From a bacterium (GTDB lineage: Bacteria; Patescibacteriota; Saccharimonadia; UBA4664): DNA of 64,000 nucleotides. Positions within the stretch are counted from its first letter, which is position 1, and every line of letters starts with the position of its first letter. The DNA lies in contig CP064960.1 of assembly GCA_016699105.1 (NCBI GenBank), forward strand, positions 968,729-1,032,728, written 5' to 3'. A model generated the notes under the pieces. It saw only the letters and a list, made by a program, of their open reading frames with translations, was not told where the DNA came from and searched no databases. The translations under genes were made by a program, and so were the position numbers. Shown in pieces: positions 1,449-60,914 of the stretch.

Positions 1449-4007
1449 TTAGCGGCTGTTGGCCGTTGAATTGGTGGCGTTGGATGGCGATTGATTGGTG
1501 CGTTTGGCTGGTCGATTGTATGGCCGAAGTACCAATTCATCCTGGCGACGACTAACCGAGATAGTATCACCTTCCCGGAACGTCCCGTCGAGCAAACCAG
1601 CAGCTAGAGGGTCTTCGACTAATCGTTGGATGGTGCGCCGTAACGGCCGAGCACCTTGTTTGGCATCGTAGCCCTTTTCAATCAAGAGGGCGCGAGCGGC
1701 GGGTAAGAACCGTAAACTCAAATGCTGTTTGGCTAAACGGCGGCCGAGTTCAGCCAATTGCAGACTCAATATTTCACGAAGAGAGATTGGCGATAGGGCG
1801 TGAAAGACAACGGTCGAATCGACCCGGTTCAAAAATTCGGGTTTGAAATGTTGGCGAAGGGCTTCGAGTACATTGGTTTTGACCCGCTCGTGCTCGACTT
1901 CGAGGGCCCGTTCACCGGCTGCGGTCGTCGTCCGGAAGCCGAGGGCGGCTTCGTGGAACATATCGGCGGCACCAACATTGGAAGTCATAATGATGACAGT
2001 ATTACGAAAATCGATTTTGCGACCTTTGGCATCACTAACGTAACCGTCTTCGAGAATTTGCAATAACATATTGAAAACATCGGGGTGGGCTTTTTCGATC
2101 TCATCAAACAAGATCAAGCTGTATGGACGGCGACGTACCATTTCGGTCAACTGGCCACCATCTTCATAGCCAACATAGCCAGCCGGAGCTCCAACTAACC
2201 GCGACACGTTGTGTTTTTCCATGAACTCACTCATATCGACCTTGATAAGGGCGTCGCGGTCATGGAACATTTCTTCACTCAAGACCCGGGCTAGTTCAGT
2301 TTTGCCGACACCAGTTGGTCCCAAGAACATGAAGGAACCGATTGGCCGGCGACTATCACCAACTCCGGACCGTGACCGGCGGATTGCGGCAGCCACAGCT
2401 GCGACGGCTTCATCTTGGCCAATTATGCGTCGGCGCAAATTGGCGTCGAGATTCGACAGGTTTTGGGCTTCAGCTTGAGCTAAGCGGGTGGCTGGTATTC
2501 CAGTCATAAGGGCAACCACTTGTGCGATGTCCTCGATTTCGAGTTGTAATTTCGGTAAGTCACCTTCGCGACGGTCAAGCGTTGATAGTCTACCTTGAAT
2601 AACCGATTCGCGCGTTTTGAGGCGGGCGGCCAATTCGAAGTCTTGGTCAAAAACGGCGTTTTCGATGTCATCGCGAATTTCAATTAAGGTTTGGTTGAGC
2701 GTGCGGCGCGACTTACTGGTGCCACCCCGTTGAATACGAACCAAACTGGCTGCTTCATCGACTAAATCGATGGCTTTGTCGGGCATAAATCGGTCAGCCA
2801 CATAGCGCTTAGCCATTTCGGCAGCGGCCGTCAGGGCTGCATCGGTGAGCTTGAGTTTGTGATGAGCTTCGTAGTGAGGCCGCAAGCCCCGTAATACGGC
2901 GATGGTTTCGTCGACTGTAGCTTCGGGCACGATAATGGGCTGGAAACGGCGTTCGAGCGCCGAATCTTTTTCGATGTGTTTGCGGTATTCGTCGAGTGTG
3001 GTGGCGCCAATGACTTGGATTTGGCCCCGGCTCAAAGCTGGCTTGAGAATATTTGCCGCATCAATAGCACCTTCGGCAGCTCCGGCTCCGACCACGGTAT
3101 GGAGCTCGTCGATAAACAAGATAATGTTGGGAGTAGCAGTGGCTTCGTCGAGCAGTTTCTTGAGTCGCTCTTCAAATTCGCCCCGATATTTAGTGCCGGC
3201 AACCACGGCCGCAAGGTCTAACGCCACCAGGCGTTTACCGAGCAAATGCTCTGGCACATCGCCGGTGGAGATTGATTGAGCCAGACCTTCGGCAATAGCC
3301 GTTTTACCCACACCTGGTTCGCCAATGAGGACAGGATTGTTTTTGGTTCGACGACCCAAGACTGACACTACCCGGCTCATCTGGGGTTGCCGGCCTACCA
3401 TGGGATCGAGTTCACTTTTGGCGGCTTTGGCGGTCAAATCATGACCAAAATGATCGAGGGCTGGTGTACTAGACTTGCCATTATGTTTGGGTGCCCGGGC
3501 TGACATGGCTTGAGAATCTTCGGGAAAAGCTGGCTGTTGATTACCTAGATAGTTCTCAACTTGTGTGCGGATATTAGCCGGGTCCACTTGTAGATCATTG
3601 CGCAACAAGCTAATTGCCCGCGCACTTTTTTCGCTCAGAATTGCATAGAGGATATGTTCAGTACCACAGTACGGTTGGCCAAATTCTTTGGCGATCCGCA
3701 GACTATAGGTGAGTGTTCGTTTAGCAGTCTCGGAGGCACCTTTGTAGCCGGTACCAACCATTTGCTGACTAAAACTCAAAACGAGTTGAGCTTTCTCGAA
3801 GGTTACTCCGGCAGAACCCAAGATTTTGGCACCAATTGAGGTGTCTTGTTGGAGGACTCCCAACAAAATATGCTCGGTGCCAACGTAGCTACTGCCCATC
3901 TGGGTGGCTATGGTTTCGGCATTGTGTAAACTGCGTTTGGCGTTGTCGGTAAAACGGTCAAAGTGGGCGCTCATGTCGGCCATGGCGGGCTCCTTTCGAA
4001 CAAACAA
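1449..4007 (-). CDS. clpC: Clp-family AAA+ chaperone, ClpC-like
   Basis: 852-aa ORF. Two Clp_N repeats, two AAA+ modules (GEPGVGKTAIAEGLA and GPTGVGKTELARVL) and a UVR-like linker (DQDFELAARLKTRE). Its stop lies 4 nt before the radA start. Confidence 0.9.
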   Translation of the reverse strand: MFVRKEPAMADMSAHFDRFTDNAKRSLHNAETIATQMGSSYVGTEHILLGVLQQDTSIGAKILGSAGVTFEKAQLVLSFSQQMVGTGYKGASETAKRTLTYSLRIAKEFGQPYCGTEHILYAILSEKSARAISLLRNDLQVDPANIRTQVENYLGNQQPAFPEDSQAMSARAPKHNGKSSTPALDHFGHDLTAKAAKSELDPMVGRQPQMSRVVSVLGRRTKNNPVLIGEPGVGKTAIAEGLAQSISTGDVPEHLLGKRLVALDLAAVVAGTKYRGEFEERLKKLLDEATATPNIILFIDELHTVVGAGAAEGAIDAANILKPALSRGQIQVIGATTLDEYRKHIEKDSALERRFQPIIVPEATVDETIAVLRGLRPHYEAHHKLKLTDAALTAAAEMAKRYVADRFMPDKAIDLVDEAASLVRIQRGGTSKSRRTLNQTLIEIRDDIENAVFDQDFELAARLKTRESVIQGRLSTLDRREGDLPKLQLEIEDIAQVVALMTGIPATRLAQAEAQNLSNLDANLRRRIIGQDEAVAAVAAAIRRSRSGVGDSRRPIGSFMFLGPTGVGKTELARVLSEEMFHDRDALIKVDMSEFMEKHNVSRLVGAPAGYVGYEDGGQLTEMVRRRPYSLILFDEIEKAHPDVFNMLLQILEDGYVSDAKGRKIDFRNTVIIMTSNVGAADMFHEAALGFRTTTAAGERALEVEHERVKTNVLEALRQHFKPEFLNRVDSTVVFHALSPISLREILSLQLAELGRRLAKQHLSLRFLPAARALLIEKGYDAKQGARPLRRTIQRLVEDPLAAGLLDGTFREGDTISVSRRQDELVLRPYNRPAKRTNQSPSNATNSTANSR

Positions 4008-29664: not shown

Positions 29665-30594
29665 GTTCAATAGCTTTGCATCAAAGTAACGCTACAATGA
29701 ACCATGGCCTACACATCTAACGAAAAGCTCCTAAACTCCGCATGGAAGCGGTCAAACTTGTAAGAAAAGGGTGGACTACTCGTGCAGTCGCCCTTCATTT
29801 TCGGGTACAACCAGTCCACCATTGTGCGCTGGGTCGCTAAAGCTCCGGCCGACGGCCGGATGAATATTCCAACCGAGTCCTCGCGGCCTCAGTCTCATCG
29901 AAAGCGCTCTCCAAGGCAATCGTCAAGCCATCATCGCCGAGCGTCTCAAGCACAACAGATGCGCTGAGGTTGTCCACGCAGAGCTGCTCGAACATGGTGT
30001 CCATGTGAGCCTCTCAAGCGTAAAACGGACTCCTAGACCGTCATGAGCTGCTCAGAAGAAATCAAGTGGGCCCGGATTCGGGAATCACTGCCGAGACCCG
30101 AAAATCACCGGTCCAGGTTCACTTGTCCAGATGGACACGGTCCATTTGTGGATTGGAGCATTGGTGAACGCTTTTATATCTACACGATTATTGACCTGCA
30201 TTCTCGTTGGGCGTATGCCGAAGTCCATGACAAACTCAGCCAAGCTATATCGCTCAAAGTAGCTCTACGGGCCCAGGTAAAAGCTGGCTTCTCATTCGTC
30301 ATGATGCAGACCGACAACGGTCCCGAGTTCCAGAAATACTTCCATGACATGCTAGCGGCCAGACACATTACTCTGCGACACTCTCGGGTTCGGCACAGCA
30401 ACGACAATGCTCATGTGGAGCGATTCAACCGCACCTTACAAGACGAATGTGAGTTCGTACCCGCTCAGGCGGAACGTGACGCAAGCAAGGCTAGAAGAGT
30501 ACTTGGATTATTACAATAACGGCCGGCGGCACATGGGAATAGCCATGCGCAGGCCCCGAGAATTAACACATGCATGATGCAAAGGTATTGAATC
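29665..30594 (+). mobile_element. IS481-family insertion sequence (degraded)
   Basis: 18-bp terminal inverted repeats ttcaatagctttgcatca (29667-29684) and tgatgcaaaggtattgaa (30575-30592) match at 17 of 18 positions. They enclose an IS481-type transposase gene. Confidence 0.65.
29700..30577 (+). pseudogene. IS481-family transposase (HTH plus rve/DDE integrase core; at least five frame changes)
   Basis: HTH pieces (WTTRAVA and FGYNQSTIVRWVAKAPADGR) sit in different frames. The DDE core YIYTIIDLHSRWAYAEVHD...MMQTDNGPEF...NDNAHVERFNRTLQDE follows, then the C-terminus ...LEEYLDYYNNGRRHMGI. Confidence 0.7.
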
Positions 30595-35249: not shown

Positions 35250-36668
35250 TTATATTTCTGCCGGGTAAATACTTTCAGCCCATAATTGCAAATCAGTTAG
35301 CAGCGATTTGCCAGCGTCATCGGCATCGTCGTAAGCAGCAGCTAAAGCGGTAGACCAGGGCTCGATGTCGGCCATAATGCGGGACGCGCGATAGGTTTCC
35401 CATTGTGAGCGATCTTCGTCTGATAGGCTTTGTGGAAAATTGCGGCCTTTGTAACGCAAGAATAATTCTGGTAAGCGTTCATCGGTGAATGGTGGCGCCA
35501 ACGTAGCAATTGTTTGACTGGTGGCCGTCCTGACTTGGTTACAAGCAGCATCGTCATTAAGGAATCCATTATAGAGTGCGCCATCGACATCGTCAGTGGC
35601 CGGAAATGGCGTTTGGAGCTGAAAGGCGGCGGCAATATTGGCCGGCAATTGGCTCCCTCGGAGGGTCTGCCAATGAGTTTGAATGGTTTGTTTATCCAGC
35701 TCCAACCGTGAGGCAGCCTCGTCCGTCAGCGTAGCTAGTGGTGCCACCGCCGGACACCGGTTGGTACTGAGGGTTTTGACTGGTACCCGCGACACGCCGG
35801 TGGCCGCTAATTCCTGGCTTTTACTGAACAAGCGCACCTGCAAATCCTCGGGCGATAAATCCATAAATGGCTTTGGATCGACGCGTAAATCATAGATGAA
35901 GTACGTACCAGGTCGATCCTGCCCGATAATAACGGCGGCCGTAGTGGAGTCATGCTCATGCCCGTACATGCCATTGGTATAGATGAAGGGTTCCGGTGAT
36001 AGGGGTTTGATCATGTCTTCAACGGTGGCTTTGTGGCGCAACTTGAGGGCATACTGCCAAAATTTGGGTTGTGCTTGCTGAATGAGACGCGCTAAGCCAA
36101 TGAGAGCCTGGACATCGCTGAGGGCGTCGTGGGCTTTGAGATGGTCGAGACCATTGGCTTGGGCCAGGTTCTCGAGTCTGTTGGTTGGTTTGCCGGTATC
36201 ATCAGTTGGCCAGGTGAGCCCTTGGGGGCGCAATGCTCGCATCATCCGCACGACATCGAGGAGATCCCAGCGGCTACGGCCATCTTTGTAGGCCCAGGCA
36301 TAGGCATCAGCGAAATTGCGATAGAGCGTAAAGCGGATAAATTCATCGTCAAAGCGAATATTGTTGTATCCCGTGACAATAGTGTCGGGCGTAAGAACCT
36401 GCTCCTGCAAGCGCTTGACCAGCTCGGCTTCGGTGATGCCGTCTTGGGTCGACTGGGGGGTAATGCCAGTAATGAGGGTAGCTTCTATCTCGGGTAAGAC
36501 GTCGTCAGCTAGGCGCACCAGCCAATTGACGGGCTCCCCAATTGGTTCGAGATCAAGGGTCGTGCGCTGACCGGCAAATTGCATGATGCGCTGCCGCCGG
36601 CAATCGGTGCCTGAGGTTTCCAGATCATAAAAGAAGAATGATGGTTGGTGGGGCATAGTTGTTAGCAT
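35250..36668 (-). CDS. sbcB: Exodeoxyribonuclease I
   Basis: 472-aa intact ORF with DEDDh exonuclease motifs (FFFYDLETSG, GYNNIRFDDEF, HDALSDV) and an SbcB C-terminal domain. Confidence 0.85.
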   Translation of the reverse strand: MLTTMPHQPSFFFYDLETSGTDCRRQRIMQFAGQRTTLDLEPIGEPVNWLVRLADDVLPEIEATLITGITPQSTQDGITEAELVKRLQEQVLTPDTIVTGYNNIRFDDEFIRFTLYRNFADAYAWAYKDGRSRWDLLDVVRMMRALRPQGLTWPTDDTGKPTNRLENLAQANGLDHLKAHDALSDVQALIGLARLIQQAQPKFWQYALKLRHKATVEDMIKPLSPEPFIYTNGMYGHEHDSTTAAVIIGQDRPGTYFIYDLRVDPKPFMDLSPEDLQVRLFSKSQELAATGVSRVPVKTLSTNRCPAVAPLATLTDEAASRLELDKQTIQTHWQTLRGSQLPANIAAAFQLQTPFPATDDVDGALYNGFLNDDAACNQVRTATSQTIATLAPPFTDERLPELFLRYKGRNFPQSLSDEDRSQWETYRASRIMADIEPWSTALAAAYDDADDAGKSLLTDLQLWAESIYPAEI

Positions 36669-36794
36669 AGCAGATGTGAGTGGTAATGAATATTGACTAT
36701 TTTATATTTTTGTAGTATTATATATCGGACCTTGGTGCAACCTTCAGATATGCAGCCATGTAGTCACCCTACAACTTGGGACAGGAGTATCCCC

Positions 36795-37418
36795 GTGACT
36801 CGTCGGATATTCAGAACGATCGCCATGGCGATCGGAGCAGTAGTACTGGCCGTTACGTTGGCTGGTTGCCCGTTCGTTGACAGCAAGGTCGCCAACCTCA
36901 AAGGCTTGATGCAGGGCCGGTCAGCCACCGTCACCACGTACAACGTGTTCGGACAAAAGCTCGACCGGATCCACGGTGTTTCGGTGGACATCCAGCGTGA
37001 AAAGGCCTTCGACTCGAAGAACGAAGACGGATCCACCAACAAGGATTCGTCGGTTGTGTCAGTCAGTGTGGGTGCGAACGTGATGACGCACGTCGGCTCG
37101 ACGCTACTCATGGCCGAGGACGGACTTGTCGACGTCAGCGCAGCACTGCCCAAAACCGTCGACCTGAACAACTTTGACCATGGAACTCCCTTCCTCAACT
37201 ACCTGCGCCAGACATACTCGAATTACTGGCAGGGCAAGGCGAGGACAATCGTGGTGCGGTCGCAGAACGGCTCTCCCATTGCCATCTACGCGGGCAACAA
37301 GGTGGAGTACTTTGCCACCAACGTGCCCAAGAGCACGCTCTTGTTGATCGACGATAAGTACCTGCTGATCTATCGCAGCGAGTACACCATCTACGATAAC
37401 GCGCTCTTGCGATCGTAG
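36795..37418 (+). CDS. Hypothetical lipoprotein
   Basis: GTG start with RBS ggacaggag. The n-region RRIFR, an h-region and lipobox LAGC point to a lipoprotein. Mature part about 185 aa. GC-rich. Confidence 0.5.
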   Translation: MTRRIFRTIAMAIGAVVLAVTLAGCPFVDSKVANLKGLMQGRSATVTTYNVFGQKLDRIHGVSVDIQREKAFDSKNEDGSTNKDSSVVSVSVGANVMTHVGSTLLMAEDGLVDVSAALPKTVDLNNFDHGTPFLNYLRQTYSNYWQGKARTIVVRSQNGSPIAIYAGNKVEYFATNVPKSTLLLIDDKYLLIYRSEYTIYDNALLRS

Positions 37419-37431
37419 ACCGCAATTTCAC

Positions 37432-37524
37432 CACCCGGTGAACACCCGGTCTCGGCTTCATTGTCGAGACCGGACCCGGCCCGGACGTTCAACTATGTTG
37501 TTGAGCTGCCAGGTCGGGTTTTTA
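37432..37524 (+). repeat. 90-bp structured repeat, copy 1
   Basis: cacccggtgaacacccggtctcgg...cgagaccggacccggcccggacgttcaac...gttgagctgccaggtcgggttttt. It lies 13 nt after a stop codon. Contains a 9-bp GC-rich hairpin and ends in a G-rich segment plus T tract. Confidence 0.8.
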
Positions 37525-37621
37525 GATAGTAATAGATTGACTAATTACATTTATTGTAGTATACTTATACCGTTCACCCTAGACTCCGAGCAAATTGCTC
37601 ACCGACCGAAGGGCTATCGTG

Positions 37622-38089
37622 ATGACCACTGACACCCCCGACCAGACCCCGCAGACCGCTCGTCCGCGGCGATCCGCTCTCTACCGCCTCGTACGGTTCA
37701 TGCTGATCGCAGCGGTCCTTGAGATGGCGATCTACCTGCAGGCCAAGCATGGCGCTGACCAGCAGGCCATCATCGATCGTGGCCTCAAGGGGCTGCAGCA
37801 GTACTCCGAGGAGGCAGTCCAGGCCAAGCGGAACCAGAACCTCTGGTCCAGCTTCGTCTTCACGTCCTTCTTCATCTGGTTCGCCGTGGGCATGGTGCGC
37901 ATCGCCTGGGCGACCATCTCGAGCATCAGCTCGTCTCGCAAGTCGGCGGCTCAGCCCGGTGCCCCAGTCGCAGCGGCGCCGAACACCACGAGCGAGCCGT
38001 TCGCTTCGAGCATTCCGCCCCTCTTCGGTACCCGGCCGTCGGATGGCGGCACCGGCGCATTGTACCGGAGCGGTATGGAAGACATCTAG
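37622..38089 (+). CDS. Hypothetical membrane protein (about 65% GC), bracketed by the 90-bp repeat pair
   Basis: 155 aa from MTTDTPDQ, with two TM helices and a Pro/Ala/Ser-rich tail. Confidence 0.5.
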   Translation: MTTDTPDQTPQTARPRRSALYRLVRFMLIAAVLEMAIYLQAKHGADQQAIIDRGLKGLQQYSEEAVQAKRNQNLWSSFVFTSFFIWFAVGMVRIAWATISSISSSRKSAAQPGAPVAAAPNTTSEPFASSIPPLFGTRPSDGGTGALYRSGMEDI

Positions 38090-38092
38090 TTC

Positions 38093-38183
38093 TACCCGGT
38101 GAACACCCGGTCTCGGCATCTTTGTCGAGACCGGACCCGGCCCGGACGTTCAACTTAATTGTTGAGCTGCCAGGTCGGGTTTT
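38093..38183 (+). repeat. 90-bp structured repeat, copy 2
   Basis: About 90% identical to copy 1. All differences fall in the two loop regions (gcttcattgt versus gcatctttgt; ctatgtt versus cttaatt); the stems are conserved. It lies 3 nt after a stop codon. Confidence 0.8.
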
Positions 38184-38266
38184 GGTATAAACAGAAAACC
38201 CGCCGACCATGAGGCCGGGGCCTTCTGGTAGACGGGTGATGCACGTGCAGTGCTTGGTTTGTGCGC

Positions 38267-38611
38267 TTAGTGAAGCAGCGCGTAGAGCTGGACGGATCCG
38301 ATCACGACCACGAGTGGCGTCATCATTACGAGCCAGATGGCGCCGAAAGTTACAGTGCCTTCGTGGGGCGGGTAGCGCTTTACCACAATCATGTTACAGA
38401 CGATCGTGATCAAATATCCGATTCCGATGAACTTAATCAGGCGCCCGAAAGCGTCAGCAAGCTCCTGATATGGCGAGTCGCTTGACATGCCGAGATACAA
38501 CAAACTGAACAGCTTCAACCCACTGGGGTGAACCTGCAATACAGTGCCAATAGCGGCAAACTGATCAGCGTCACGATGTAGATCGTGTAACGCACGTGCA
38601 ACCAGCTCCAA
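38267..38611 (-). CDS. Hypothetical small membrane protein
   Basis: ORF of 114 aa, but the internal Met giving about 72 aa is more likely. Two TM helices. Confidence 0.3.
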   Translation of the reverse strand: MELVARALHDLHRDADQFAAIGTVLQVHPSGLKLFSLLYLGMSSDSPYQELADAFGRLIKFIGIGYLITIVCNMIVVKRYPPHEGTVTFGAIWLVMMTPLVVVIGSVQLYALLH

Positions 38612-38931
38612 CGACGCTGAGTGCGGGTTGGCCTTGCTGTGGGCGGGACGGTGAAGTCGGGCACGGAGCCTCCGGGACGTGGGATTGGGTTTATGCAGGT
38701 GCGATGGAGATCAATGAGATCAAGCTACATTATATCATAATTATAATGCTTTGTCCATCTAAATTACGTGGCAGCGAGAAATGATTATCGACGTTATCGT
38801 TCGCAACCTGAATACTCAAATTACTTTAAGTGCTCGGGTGGAGATCTAGTTCTTGGCATGGAACTAGCAAGCATGGCGGGAGCCTTTGGGTCCCGGCGGA
38901 GGAGTGGGCACTCTCGGTGCCTAATAGACAG

Positions 38932-39594
38932 TTACTGCGAGACCACAGCCGACTTCATCGCCGCGGCGAAGGCCCGGTTGGCAGCCAGCAGGTTGGGTGC
39001 ATCCACGGTGAGGCGGGTGAACGGACTCTCATCAACGAAGATGTGATCGGTGGCAATGACAGCATCATCCGTTACCCGTACTTCGGCGGGAAAGCCATGG
39101 CCAGGGATATCGTGGAAGATGCGCACCCGATCGACGAGGCCGGCGAGTGCAGTAGGCTCCGTATTCAGACAGCCGTCCACAGGCTCGGTGGTAATGCCGA
39201 TCCCCGAAGCGTGTAAGCGGAAGCCTCCACGACTAATCTGCGGACGAGCACCAGGCGGGCCGATGAAACCCTTAAATCCATCCCCGATAGATACAGCCAT
39301 CGGATTCTCTTTATTGTCGATATTGAGAACCAGCACAGTGTACATAGGGTGTACCGTCCTTTCAGGACGAGAGGAGTTTTCGGATCATTACTGGTAGAAA
39401 ATGGTGAAATTTTCGACCGCATAAACCGGGATTTGGTAACTTCCCCCGCCCGTAATCGAAACGAGGTAGTACAGTTTGAATCGCTGAATCGAGAGAATGG
39501 GCACTTTGTAGAGGTAGTCGGGTTTACCGACCTCATACCGACGACCATAGCGGCTATCGGTGATGCTGACATAATGCGGCACGCCGATCATCAT
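38932..39594 (-). CDS. Hypothetical protein (one apparent frameshift)
   Basis: Two overlapping ORF-track pieces (39388-39594 and 38932-39345) point to one gene of about 220 aa. No family recognised. Confidence 0.3.
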
Positions 39595-40575: not shown

Positions 40576-41022
40576 CTACTCGCCTGGCTCATTGAGTTTG
40601 TGCCGATACTCAGCGCGCGTGGCCCAGGCTACTAATTCCTCAATCTCTTGGGGCGACTCCGGATAGAACAATGGCAAGCCCTTAGCCAATGCCCAGGCCC
40701 GCTCGCGCTTGGCGCCGCTGGAGGTATGCCAGCGGGGCGTGAAGAGCACGGCGTCGGCTGCGTTGAGAAAATGAAAATCTAGGGCGTGATAAAAAGTCTC
40801 GTCGGCTTGGGCTTTGGTGCCAAAGTGGTGGGTGTGCAGATGCGGGCAAAAGAAGCCGATGCCGGCGTTGGCAAGGGCTATGGCGTAAGCCTCGGCGTCG
40901 CGGATGTTGGCCTCGATGGTCTCGATTTTGCCATCGCCAATGTAGGGCCCGGCGATGAAGACGATTTTCATCGGGCGAGAGCCGAGGGGTGCCCAGGGGG
41001 TGGTATCTGGAGGGGTGGTCAT
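40576..41022 (-). CDS. DUF4406-family protein (nucleoside 2-deoxyribosyltransferase-like fold)
   Basis: 149 aa from MTTPPDTT. MKIVFIAGPYIGDG is the DUF4406 N-terminal signature. Confidence 0.6.
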   Translation of the reverse strand: MTTPPDTTPWAPLGSRPMKIVFIAGPYIGDGKIETIEANIRDAEAYAIALANAGIGFFCPHLHTHHFGTKAQADETFYHALDFHFLNAADAVLFTPRWHTSSGAKRERAWALAKGLPLFYPESPQEIEELVAWATRAEYRHKLNEPGE

Positions 41023-41040
41023 GGGCAGATTGTAGCAGAT
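40905..41040. repeat. 137-bp direct repeat, copy A (DUF4406 5' end and upstream)
   Basis: Identical to 42130-42268 apart from G-run length differences. Confidence 0.8.
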
Positions 41041-41056
41041 AGCGCCATATTCAGAA

Positions 41057-42087
41057 CTACCCCCGCGGCTTTTTGGACTTGCTTTGTTGGCTAATTGCCT
41101 GCTCAAAGTCACCAACATACTCCAGGTCTTGCTGCGTGCGGAACTCGCTGTATTCCTGAATGGCCTTAGCGTCTGCCTGGGCCTTCGAGATTTTGCCGGC
41201 ATGTTTGAGCTTGGGATAATCATTCAACTCCAGGTAGCCGTCCATGATGCTGAGCCATTGAGCCATGGTTATGGGTAACCGACGGCTAGCACGGAGTTCA
41301 GCAGTATCCAGAAATGCCGACACCGCCAGCCGCAGGTGGTGGAGTTCAGCCTCGGTGAGGTAGTTTTTAGCGACGGTTACATCGGTACGCAGTACTTTGC
41401 CATCCGGTGCGAACTTCCAATTGGTTAGGCCCATGTGCGGTTTGGCGCTGCTGGACCGGTCATGTACGATTTCGGCTGCCGTGCCGCCGGCGACGGCGTA
41501 GTGAAGCTTGTTTTGGATGAAGGCAAAAAACTCTTTGGTCAGCTCGTTGGTTTTGTCATAGTCACTTGCAAGGGCAAAAATATCAGCGAGTTTGAGATAG
41601 ATACGGCGTTCACTGAGCCGGATCTCACGGACGCGCTCCAGGAGCTCGTCAAAGTAGTCTTTGCCAAAATGGGTGCCGTTTTTCAGGCGCTCATCGTCCA
41701 TAGCGAAGCCCTTAATGAGAAAATCGCGCAGAGTGACGGTGGCCCATTTACGGAACTGGGTACCTTCGAGAGATTTTACCCGATAGCCAACGGATATTAT
41801 TACGTCCAAATTGTAATAATTGGTGTCATACTGCTTGCCGTCGGCGGCAGTTGTCCGGAAATTCGGATTACTGCCGACTTATCGAGCTCACCTTCATCAA
41901 AAAGATTTCCGATATGCTCGCTGATGGTTTTCTTAGAGCGATTAAACAGCGCAGCCATTTTGTCTTGCGTGAGCCAGACAGTTTCGTCAGCGAAGAAGAC
42001 CTCGAGCTGAAGCTTGCCATCCGGGGCGGTATAAAACAGAAATTCGCCTTCGTGCGGGGCTAGCTGATTGTTGGTAGGCTTTCGCAT
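41057..42087 (-). CDS. RhuM-family virulence/defence-island protein (one apparent frameshift)
   Basis: N-terminal part ...ETVWLTQDKMAALFNRSKKTISEHIGNLFDEGEL, then (shift at about 41860, A run) DVIISVGYRVKSLEGTQFRKWATVTLRDFLIKGFAMDDERL. Confidence 0.8.
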
Positions 42088-42129: not shown

Positions 42130-42268
42130 TGTTGGCCTCGATGGTCTCGATTTTGCCATCGCCAATGTAGGGCCCGGCGATGAAGACGATTTTCATCGGG
42201 CGAGAGCCGAGGGGTGCCCAGGGGGGTGGTATCTGGAGGAGGGTGGTCATGGGCAGATTGTAGCAGAT
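42130..42268. repeat. 137-bp direct repeat, copy B (includes a truncated second copy of the DUF4406 start)
   Basis: Encodes MTTLLQIPPPWAPLGSRPMKIVFIAGPYIGDGKIETIEAN, then diverges. Confidence 0.8.
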
Positions 42269-48075: not shown

Positions 48076-48879
48076 CTACTCCCCCAACGATTCTTCTTGA
48101 TTTTGCTTCTTAATACGAGTCTTCGCCTTATTTATGCCATCGGCAACAGGCAAATTCTCGGGCATAGTGCCGCCCAGTTGGTCGATGGTTTGGCGAACTT
48201 TTTGGCCGACTTCGTAGTGGGCAAGGTTTGCCTCGGCTTCGCCCTGAATGCCCTCGCGCTTGAGCTTGGCGTCGGCCTGAGTGGCGCGAAAGAGGTTGGC
48301 AGCCAGTTCTTCGCTACCCATATGGTCGAGAATTCCTTGGGATTTTTTGAGCTGCTTCTTCTTATGGATTTGTTGGGCGGTCATCTTATATAGGCCTTTA
48401 TAACCAGCATTCTGGAAAGTGCCAAAGTTTGATACTCCAGCCTTTTTGGCAGAACTCGCAAGTGAGGCGTTGTGTACCGAAATTTCATCTCGAAGCACTA
48501 CTCGCTTGCCGTCTTCGACGAGAGTATCACTGTCTTCTTGACGCTTGGTTTGGATAGCGAAGTAGGTTTGACCGAGCGCTACCACCTCTTTAGTCGGGTC
48601 GGAGTTCTGTATTATCAAATAGCAGGCGTAGCGACTAAGTTTTACGTCATCGATCTCGCGCTGTGCGCCCGAGCCAAGGACTACCATTTCGAGAATATCC
48701 TCGAAATGGTCGTGGACAACTTGACCACTGTTTTTGGCGGACTCTTTGGCTTTCGTGATTACTGGCAAGAAGTGACGGTATTCGGAGTAGCCAAGAACCT
48801 TACATAAATCTCGCGCCATCCAGTATTCGGCTTGGCTATAATCGACCAGCTTAATTTCTTCAAATACCGTGATGTTCAC
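48076..48879 (-). CDS. dinD: DNA damage-inducible protein D-like
   Basis: 267-aa ORF with strong similarity to the DinD N-terminal region (FEEIK...YWMARDLCKVLGYSEYRHFLPVITKAKESAKNSGQVVHDHFEDILEMVVLGSGAQREIDDVKLSRYACYLIIQN). Confidence 0.75.
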   Translation of the reverse strand: MNITVFEEIKLVDYSQAEYWMARDLCKVLGYSEYRHFLPVITKAKESAKNSGQVVHDHFEDILEMVVLGSGAQREIDDVKLSRYACYLIIQNSDPTKEVVALGQTYFAIQTKRQEDSDTLVEDGKRVVLRDEISVHNASLASSAKKAGVSNFGTFQNAGYKGLYKMTAQQIHKKKQLKKSQGILDHMGSEELAANLFRATQADAKLKREGIQGEAEANLAHYEVGQKVRQTIDQLGGTMPENLPVADGINKAKTRIKKQNQEESLGE

Positions 48880-49073
48880 TGCCTACCCCCTAACTGTATG
48901 CTTAATGTACCGATTGTGGCTCTGTATAGCGCTGATACCATTTCGAGGAGATGCTCGAAATGGTTGTGGAAAACTATCTTAACCGCATCGAAATCGATGC
49001 GGTTACTAGATACTAATTTCATGAGTATAGCAACGTGCAATTCTTGCATGTTACTCGTCTCGTACGGATTCAT
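48876..49073 (-). CDS. Small ORF containing a diverged partial duplicate of a dinD internal segment
   Basis: 65 aa, overlapping hsdM and dinD by 4 nt each. HFEHLLEMV matches dinD HFEDILEMV, and the DNA segments are about 80% identical over about 45 nt. Confidence 0.35.
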   Translation of the reverse strand: MNPYETSNMQELHVAILMKLVSSNRIDFDAVKIVFHNHFEHLLEMVSALYRATIGTLSIQLGGRQ

Positions 49074-60442: not shown

Positions 60443-60730
60443 ATGGCAACGATCGTCCAGCGCGACCACCCGGCAACTCGGCCACCCCATGGTGGGTGTC
60501 CATTCGAGGTAATCACCGCAGAACTGATTCGACAGGTGGGTCACGCCTGGCTCGAACTCACGGGGCTCGATGGAGTCCGGACTTGCGTGATTGGTGTTTT
60601 CACCGTGATCTGTACCCTCCGGAATACGGATGGCACCGTACTGAGCTTCTACTGCCAAGACAGGGATGGTAACCACTACTTCGGATACGTGCACCGGGAA
60701 AGCTTTACTGTCATCAAATCACGGCGCTAG
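60443..60730 (+). CDS. Small hypothetical protein
   Basis: 95-aa ORF. RBS gaggtagg lies 6 nt upstream. Confidence 0.45.
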   Translation: MATIVQRDHPATRPPHGGCPFEVITAELIRQVGHAWLELTGLDGVRTCVIGVFTVICTLRNTDGTVLSFYCQDRDGNHYFGYVHRESFTVIKSRR

Positions 60731-60823
60731 TCTCCACCACGGGCCAGACTCGGTTCTGGCCCCGGGCCCATCTCGAATTCTCGAGGTGGGCTTTCTTTAT
60801 GTTGCGGCAGATACATGCAAAAA

Positions 60824-60849
60824 GCGCCTAGAGATATTACTCTAGGCGC
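60824..60849. terminator. Hairpin between convergent genes
   Basis: 10-bp perfect stem gcgcctagag-atatta-ctctaggcgc. Confidence 0.45.
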
Positions 60850-60914
60850 ACGGGCGTCGGGAACCGTTCGTCCCTCTTTGCCCTTTCTCCAGTACTGGAT
60901 CAGCGACACGATGG

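Follow-up and report, generated by a model that had tools for sequence, protein, structure and literature searches.

Two near-identical copies of a predicted compound terminator bracket an orphan gene on a Saccharibacteria chromosome

A 90-nt structured element present in two copies on a Saccharibacteria chromosome is probably, though by no means certainly, a compound Rho-independent terminator (3′-end module) that was doubled within an expression unit copied from the regulatory DNA of a neighbouring gene. The layout, within the 64,000-nt stretch of DNA that was analysed (the window), would be P1–DUF5052–T–P2–ORFan–T, in which the DUF5052 terminator, copy A, served as the source of copy B, and the coding parts are unrelated. 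Both genes would be insulated in transcription, in the manner of morons, on the margin of a defence island that varies between strains. If true, this would be a clear natural case of an orphan gene made expressible by copies of its neighbour's promoter and terminator; it would be of use in 3′-end annotation and in the study of gene birth or capture in reduced CPR genomes, and would involve no new principle. The features concerned are as follows.

36682–36725, plus strand: predicted promoter P1 of the DUF5052 gene, TTGACT-17-TATTAT at 36693–36721 (promoter scan)
36795–37418, plus strand: DUF5052 lipoprotein gene; GTG start, lipobox LAGC, 56% GC, GC3 0.78
37433–37522, plus strand: repeat copy A, predicted compound terminator; U-tract fold −51 kcal/mol, 117 bits with covariance model R1; 13-nt 5′ tail ACCCGGTGAACAC, hairpin 1 at 37446–37473 (11 bp, without U-tract), hairpin 2 at 37474–37519 (17 bp, interrupted), then UUUUU
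37528–37565, plus strand: predicted promoter P2 of the orphan gene, TTGACT-17-TATACT at 37537–37565 (promoter scan, 10/12 sigma-70)
37622–38089, plus strand: orphan gene, 155 aa, 64.7% GC, GC3 0.84; two predicted transmembrane segments and a Pro/Ala/Ser-rich tail
38094–38183, plus strand: repeat copy B, the same predicted compound terminator; hairpin 1 at 38107–38134, hairpin 2 at 38135–38180, then UUUU; 118 bits with R1
38199–38237, minus strand: unrelated terminator hairpin of the convergent gene at 38267–38611, −37.3 kcal/mol, then UUUUCUGUUU on the minus strand

A repeat search of the window recovered the element as a direct repeat of 90 nt on the plus strand, with copy A at 37433–37522, copy B at 38094–38183, and starts 661 nt apart; an earlier note, made from the letters alone, had placed the pair at 37432–37524 and 38093–38183, and the limits given here lie one base inside. 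The copies are equal at 85 of 90 bases (94% identity). All five mismatches are apical—repeat positions 25 and 28 in the loop of hairpin 1, and 63–65 in the loop of hairpin 2—and the 28 base pairs are the same in both copies, which bears out the earlier claim that the differences are confined to two loops while the stems are identical. With loops masked and up to three mismatches allowed, each half of the repeat occurs exactly twice in 64 kb, against 0.00–0.02 occurrences expected from shuffles of the window; the match between the copies is far beyond chance. Both recur in independent ENA, NCBI, and Logan assemblies, and the two-copy state is therefore no assembly artefact. The proximity to stop codons that the note described was also found: the upstream stops end at 37418 and 38089, with copy A beginning 14 nt later and copy B 4 nt later.

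Folded as RNA on the plus strand, each copy forms two hairpins. The shared stem ccggtctcg...cgagaccgg, seen beforehand, grows on folding to the 11–12 bp of hairpin 1 (CCGGUCUCGGC...GUCGAGACCGG), and the second stem-like segment is a 17-bp interrupted hairpin with the end GGUCGGGUUUU. Hairpin 2 directly adjoins hairpin 1, and its GC-rich 8-bp base, ACCCGGCC/GGUCGGGU, abuts UUUUU in copy A or UUUU in copy B. Folding energies are −58.1 kcal/mol (copy A) and −55.7 kcal/mol (copy B), with z scores of −7.8 and −7.2 against dinucleotide shuffles, and the minimum-energy structure accounts for about half of the ensemble. The single-stranded DNA form, which the note had likewise proposed to fold, takes the same two-hairpin topology with DNA parameters at about −22 kcal/mol. 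The minus strand folds 11–12 kcal/mol more weakly, and three G·U pairs of the plus strand would become A·C on the opposite strand; hence, the sense (plus) strand is favoured. A bidirectional terminator was ruled out, the minus strand giving a weaker fold with no U-tract behind it. A leader or riboswitch of a downstream gene was also rejected, with copy A lying upstream of P2 and copy B having no plus-strand gene downstream.

Every TTTT in the window was surveyed on both strands by folding the 88 nt upstream of it. The copies are the two most stable U-tract-ended folds of the 64 kb (−51.8 and −51.2 kcal/mol, the next being −40.6), and the other U-tract-ended candidates near gene ends are mostly single hairpins. 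In both copies, a stable GC-rich hairpin with a U-rich tract immediately after it lies on the transcribed strand, just past a stop codon and at the end of a transcription unit; NusA is encoded within the window. Because of this two-hairpin fold with its U-tract, the G·U strand bias, and the position after stops, the copies are read as compound intrinsic terminators, which supports the terminator or structured RNA element that the earlier note had offered as one explanation. The convergent gene's own terminator lies beyond copy B, and copy B thus closes its transcription unit between convergent genes. As for how the parts would act, hairpin 2 and the U-tract may release RNA polymerase, with hairpin 1 probably serving as a shield against 3′ exonucleases or as a back-up pause. 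The labour would then be divided, hairpin 2 terminating and hairpin 1 stabilising the 3′ end.

Like known intrinsic and tandem-hairpin terminators, the element has a GC-rich stem and, directly behind it, a U-tract; it lies on the sense strand within a few nucleotides of the preceding stop codon and closes a monocistronic unit. The same hairpin–hairpin–U-tract layout is seen in a non-homologous terminator of the window at 60732–60797. The element differs from such terminators in its length of 90 nt, its stability of about −55 kcal/mol, an upstream hairpin that lacks a U-tract, an invariant 13-nt tail, and its presence in two near-identical copies. As a predicted terminator, it has weak points: the U-tract is short (4–5 U), and hairpin 2, with 46 nt and two internal loops, is long in comparison with the canonical form.

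The first of the two genes encodes a lipoprotein of the DUF5052 family (Pfam PF16475, E = 8.5e-61; phrog_2316, E = 4.8e-34), its start codon having been set through comparison with a related locus (L026). It is under purifying selection, with a pN/pS of 0.13 against strain L017; upstream of it lie P1 and, after that, some 70 nt of conserved leader. Relatives of the protein occur in phage contigs that carry Mu F, an endolysin, and many small ORFs; a literature search for DUF5052 gave no paper. Related contigs were reached via the strain variant P0002 of the orphan protein and the DUF5052 cluster P0003. Orthologues of about 65% identity lie on other contigs of about 48%–49% GC, which we take to be Saccharibacteria-like and of other genera. 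These orthologues keep P1 and the leader (alignment A3) but end in single-hairpin terminators of another kind. On these grounds, the 90-nt module is regarded as lineage-specific, and P2 as derived from the P1 of this lineage.

The gene between the repeats was described beforehand as a membrane-protein gene of 65% GC, and this description holds: its GC content is 64.7%, against 51.1% for the window, and hydropathy gives two hydrophobic segments, at residues 19–41 and 74–102. GC3 is 0.84 here and 0.78 in the DUF5052 gene, compared with 0.57 in the neighbouring sbcB. Apart from its own record (QQR52143.1, encoded by a MAG with a 1.32-Mb contig), the protein is matched only by a strain variant of 95% identity. 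A word-indexed search of 5.8 billion proteins and a full HMMER search of 1.84 billion representatives found no homologue, and the gene has no Pfam, PHROG, or PADLOC match; an exact protein look-up of the window's ORFan and sbcB returned nothing on record. Comparison with the strain variant in the plus frame shows 12 synonymous and 8 non-synonymous changes (pN/pS 0.22), whereas an open antisense frame over the gene, favoured by one gene caller, has a pN/pS of 1.1. The orphan gene is real, a true ORFan, and under purifying selection. A diverged duplicate of the DUF5052 coding region was considered as its source and ruled out, similarity by blastn and tblastn being nil. The raised GC3 of both genes, the ORFan without homologues, and the DUF5052 relatives on phage contigs speak for a foreign origin.

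P2 starts 14 nt past copy A, and copy A and P2 together form a terminator–promoter composite. P1 (36682–36718) and P2 (37528–37562) align with 30 identities over 37 columns (approximately 81%), with indels. Their local alignment score of 34 compares with 14.8 ± 2.3 in 2000 shuffles, of which none reached 34, and every other promoter-like site of the window scores far lower. GTAAT and TTGTAGTAT are common to P2 and its own species' P1 and are absent from the orthologous promoters of other genera. Judged by this likeness, the predicted promoter P2 is a diverged copy of P1. From the P1/P2 likeness and the lineage-specific 90-nt module, it follows that the orphan gene is flanked by a promoter and a terminator copied from its neighbour, both copies being specific to this lineage.

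In related strains, the block 36682–38203, with both copies of the repeat, recurs in independent ENA, NCBI, and Logan contigs at 95.4% identity. The shared block begins at 36682, the left edge of P1. Homology to the left in L017 and L018 stops at an element that directly abuts P1; read by eye, this element would carry the start of a transposase-like minus-strand ORF and would represent a putative IS. L019 keeps the sbcB flank, as in the window. To the right of copy B, unrelated DNA replaces the sequence up to a DUF7768 gene in the strains. Sister strains free of the cassette had been suggested as a check. The ORFan was instead found in every related assembly long enough to show it (five: L001, L002, L003, L004, and L017; L018–L020 stop at or just past copy A). 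Saccharibacteria with an sbcB of 59%–61% identity have no DUF5052 module beside it, and synteny there has decayed so far that an empty site cannot be defined. No single-copy, ORFan-free strain was found among the relatives, and insertion of a cassette into the site is therefore putative.

Five distinct copies of the repeat from three strains show seven variable columns, five in apical loops and two in stem 2. Of the two stem 2 changes, U82 to C turns a G·U into a G-C pair, so that pairing is kept, and C49 to U turns C-G into U·G, which is tolerated on the plus strand only. Between strains, the repeats differ at 7 of 180 positions (3.9%), against 22 of 213 in the other non-coding DNA of the block (Fisher p = 0.019), with values of 6.1% for the P1 region and leader, 15.2% for the P2 spacer, and a pS of 0.07–0.105. 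Structural constraint is suggested at about the p = 0.01–0.05 level, which is not strong. The selection on structure proposed by the note finds partial backing: five of the seven variable columns fall in loops and both stem changes keep their pairs, but no two-sided compensatory change occurs across the five distinct copies. No variant is shared between copies or strains—a star phylogeny—and copy B of L002 equals the consensus, which implies that copies A and B had not yet diverged at the time of the strain split. Given the star phylogeny, a fairly recent duplication explains much of their present identity, as the earlier note had allowed. Loop inversion by template switching was ruled out on inspection, the variant loops not being mutual reverse complements.

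The fold and its strand bias, the position of the copies, the duplicated promoter and terminator, the ORFan status, and the purifying selection on the ORFan were observed; the route of origin is inferred. The DUF5052 unit may have been duplicated in tandem, with subsequent replacement of the second coding part. Alternatively, homologous recombination at the terminator or promoter, by a single crossover with a one-copy molecule, may have brought in GC-rich foreign DNA. The latter route is supported by a parallel in the same island, since rhuM is likewise bracketed by a repeat and has an empty counterpart in L017: the repeat there, of 136 nt and 100% identical, comprises the DUF7768 promoter and 5′ end, and L017 has one copy of it and no rhuM. 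The left neighbour of the two units is sbcB, whose relatives place the organism in Saccharibacteria (TM7); to the right lie small unknown genes and then the strain-variable defence island with RhuM/PDC-S05, YgjP, and a type I R-M system. No phage structural genes were seen around the units, and BLAST of 36000–39500 against phage and plasmid collections gave no relevant match. The 29 window ORFs scanned against Pfam include no tyrosine recombinase or Phage_integrase domain, and their sole DDE match is an rve fragment at 30043–30519. The suggestion of a cassette stands in part. An ORFan of foreign composition does lie between the repeats, with its own promoter copied from the neighbour, but an integron, MITE, or REP type is not supported; the evidence supports a duplicated expression unit or recombination-mediated insertion.

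The PeSLs of T4-type phages are conserved stem-loop terminators combined with a sigma-70 promoter, which flank ORFans and shuffle them via homologous recombination and mini-circles (PMC2839356; PMC4122927). A less probable alternative is that the composite here is itself an active linker of this kind; recombination between copies would excise or insert the ORFan as mini-circles, and the repeats would be both vehicle and signal. Copy A and P2 (37537–37565) do form such a composite, with stem-loop terminator, AT-rich spacer, and sigma-70 promoter in the order implied by PeSL crossover sites (PMC2839356); its terminator part is repeated at 38094–38183 and its promoter part at 36682–36725. As with PeSLs (Arbiol et al. 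2010, PMC2839356; PMC4122927), a terminator–promoter composite of the same order of length (approximately 100–130 nt) has copies that flank an ORFan in a variable region, yielding insulated cassettes, and the direct-repeat layout is what recombination between linkers should produce. A single crossover with a one-copy circle would leave direct repeats on both sides of one gene, the pair stands at the border of a strain-variable region, and the nearby rhuM insertion has the same signature with an empty site in a sister strain.

However, PeSLs number dozens per phage genome, whereas only two terminator and two promoter copies occur in the 64-kb window, forming one pair, and no other copy was found in any search. 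Nor was insertion/deletion polymorphism of the ORFan seen among close relatives, all five strain assemblies carrying the gene. Mini-circles and circle junctions were not observed, the promoter copies have diverged to approximately 81% with indels, the terminator is a double hairpin, and the host is a bacterial chromosome instead of a T4-type phage with a hyper-recombination system. PeSLs are the closest functional analogue of the element; it is not filed as a member of their family because their multiplicity and gain/loss polymorphism were not found. Should the composite prove to be a linker used repeatedly across the genome, it would extend the PeSL mechanism to bacterial chromosomes and provide for recombinase-free cassette gain in small-genome episymbionts. 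Conceivably, although we would not expect it, Saccharibacteria chromosomes use PeSL-like terminator–promoter linkers to capture and express foreign ORFans near defence islands without a dedicated recombinase; insulated single-gene cassettes would enter through homologous recombination between copies of a regulatory module, here the 90-nt double hairpin with the TTGACT-17-TATACT promoter, and rhuM with its 136-nt repeat would be a second product.

The duplicated expression unit also invites comparison with phage morons, which are autonomous promoter–gene–terminator units of atypical composition that are not defined by shared flanking sequences. Both genes here are single-gene units, each with its own predicted promoter and predicted terminator, whose GC3 greatly exceeds that of the genome, and DUF5052 belongs to phage protein family phrog_2316, with relatives on phage contigs. 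In contrast to morons, which lie between (pro)phage genes, these units lie outside any recognisable prophage, and their promoters and terminators are copies of each other.

Less probable again is that the element is a structured RNA or protein-binding site with a function of its own, such as a 3′UTR-derived small RNA or the target of an RNA-binding protein or RNase, with termination secondary. Conservation extends over all 90 nt; the unpaired 13-nt 5′ tail and an ACCCGGY motif present three times are both invariant, of which a plain terminator gives no account, and no other terminator of the window approaches the element in elaboration or stability of its fold. The repeats also diverge less between strains than the adjacent non-coding DNA, by the values given above.

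Yet covariation is absent, and conservation is only weakly measured because substitution events are few. Rfam returned no match at gathering scores over the window and, over 37380–38240 with E up to 10, two chance-level matches only (E = 4.3 and 6.5). No homologue of the element was found beyond this species, and DUF5052 orthologues of other genera have unrelated terminators, all of which tells against a functional RNA.

A search for further copies had been proposed; they were looked for in the window, in sister loci, and in three collections, with none found. Covariance model R1, run with filters off, detected no third copy in the window, its best extra match being 23 bits at 60725–60797, where the non-homologous terminator with the hairpin–hairpin–U-tract layout follows a small gene. 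Only the known copies were found by R1 in 16 related loci (approximately 126 kb). Exact hairpin-1 or hairpin-2 patterns had no real match outside the lineage in GTDB species genomes, JGI metagenomes, or IMG/VR, these scans requiring exact stems, so that diverged copies would be missed, and the source genome, roughly 95% of which lies beyond the window, not being in the scanned genome collection. On reading, all 12 pattern matches from outside the lineage proved to be GC-rich coding or hairpin sequences unrelated to the element.

REPs are about 35–40 nt long and occur in hundreds of copies. The element resembles REP/BIME sequences as a GC-rich imperfect palindrome in a 3′ untranslated region, at gene 3′ ends, that could stabilise upstream mRNA, but differs in that only two copies were found. 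To integron attC/VCR-type arrays it is similar in being a structured repeat (57–141 nt in such arrays) directly behind each ORF in tandem, and differs in that R/L-box architecture, extrahelical bases, promoterless cassettes, and an integrase are absent or were not found here. That the pair marks a classical mobile element or cassette, as a member of a dispersed REP/BIME-like or MITE family or an integron attC, is thus very improbable: the searches for a third copy (window, related loci, and exact patterns in the three collections) gave none, there are neither terminal inverted repeats (the ends ACCCGGTGAAC... and ...GGTCGGGTTTT not being mutual inverted repeats) nor a target-site duplication shared by the flanks of copies A and B, the 29 scanned ORFs include no integrase gene, and the cassette has its own 10/12 sigma-70 promoter.

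Two further features could be taken to favour a mobile element or an integron cassette. The heptamers GTTCAAC and GTTGAGC do fit RYYYAAC and GTTRRRY; they pair as the 7-bp stem at the tip of hairpin 2, with a 6-nt loop between them and no L box, whereas the attC architecture R''-L''...L'-R' has heptamers at the outer ends and extrahelical bases. One such 7-mer match has a chance expectation of approximately 15% in 90 nt over two strands. Several short-read contigs break at the repeat, as is expected with any two-copy repeat.

The rhuM/PDC-S05 gene, which lies in the strain-variable defence island, is bracketed by two identical copies of a direct repeat:

40905-41040 and 42130-42268, direct repeat of ~136 nt, copies 100% identical
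41057-41809, minus strand, rhuM/PDC-S05 gene

The repeat spans the promoter and 5′ UTR of the DUF7768 gene, together with its first ~22 codons. The sister-strain contig L017 carries a single copy and lacks rhuM; thus, rhuM is a recent gene insertion between duplicated regulatory DNA, and its empty site is known.

Homologues of the DUF5052 lipoprotein with 60%–65% identity are encoded on phage-like contigs (L021 and L027-L032) of 62%–64% GC, which also carry Phage_Mu_F, Amidase_2, and many small ORFs. The family additionally matches phrog_2316, and together these observations suggest that Saccharibacteria and phages of high-GC bacteria have exchanged the lipoprotein gene. The promoter and a ~70-nt leader of the DUF5052 genes are kept across genera, although the proteins are only ~65% identical:

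36722-36794, window, leader
3935-4000, contig L026, leader
2935-3000, contig L033, leader
contig L035, leader

The conserved core of the leader reads CATGYAGTCANCCTACRA...GGGAYWGGAG. The frame of the conserved ATG relative to the gene is inconsistent, and the leader therefore looks like a non-coding cis-regulatory element.

Directly upstream of the DUF5052 promoter, several related strains carry sequence that differs from that of the window, where the left neighbour is sbcB, as it also is in L019. Strain contigs end there:

L017 1-54 and L018 1-213, differing DNA left of window position 36682, with a minus-strand ORF start MRSLQPHHIVDIFCFVDS...DSEIITL

Read by eye, this ORF start looks transposase-like, and the DNA is interpreted as a putative IS; another part of L017 encodes a DDE_Tnp_1_3 transposase. 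The window itself holds a probable IS remnant:

30043-30519, 158-aa ORF whose rve integrase core (IS3-type DDE transposase) is reduced to its C-terminal part

Further structured elements occur in the window:

60820-60883 (L017 1925-1988), hairpin element gcgcctagag...ctctaggcgc, then gggcgtcgggaaccgttcgtccct
48682-48721 and 48936-48975, 40-nt palindromic repeat TACCATTTCGAG...CTCGAAATGGT, copies 88% identical
60732-60797, plus strand, terminator 3′ of the small gene 60443-60730

The L017 copy of the hairpin element is 83% identical, sits at a different location, and differs by a compensatory change on both sides of the stem (CT/AG to CC/GG). The element may therefore belong to a small, structured repeat type that is dispersed. 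One copy of the palindromic repeat lies within the BRO-N domain gene (48076-48879) and the other just upstream of it, with their differences concentrated in the loop. The terminator consists of an 8-bp hairpin followed directly by an 11-bp hairpin and then UUUCUUU, the same layout as in the 90-nt repeat, to which it is non-homologous. Small accessory genes in this genome may repeatedly end in double hairpins of this kind.
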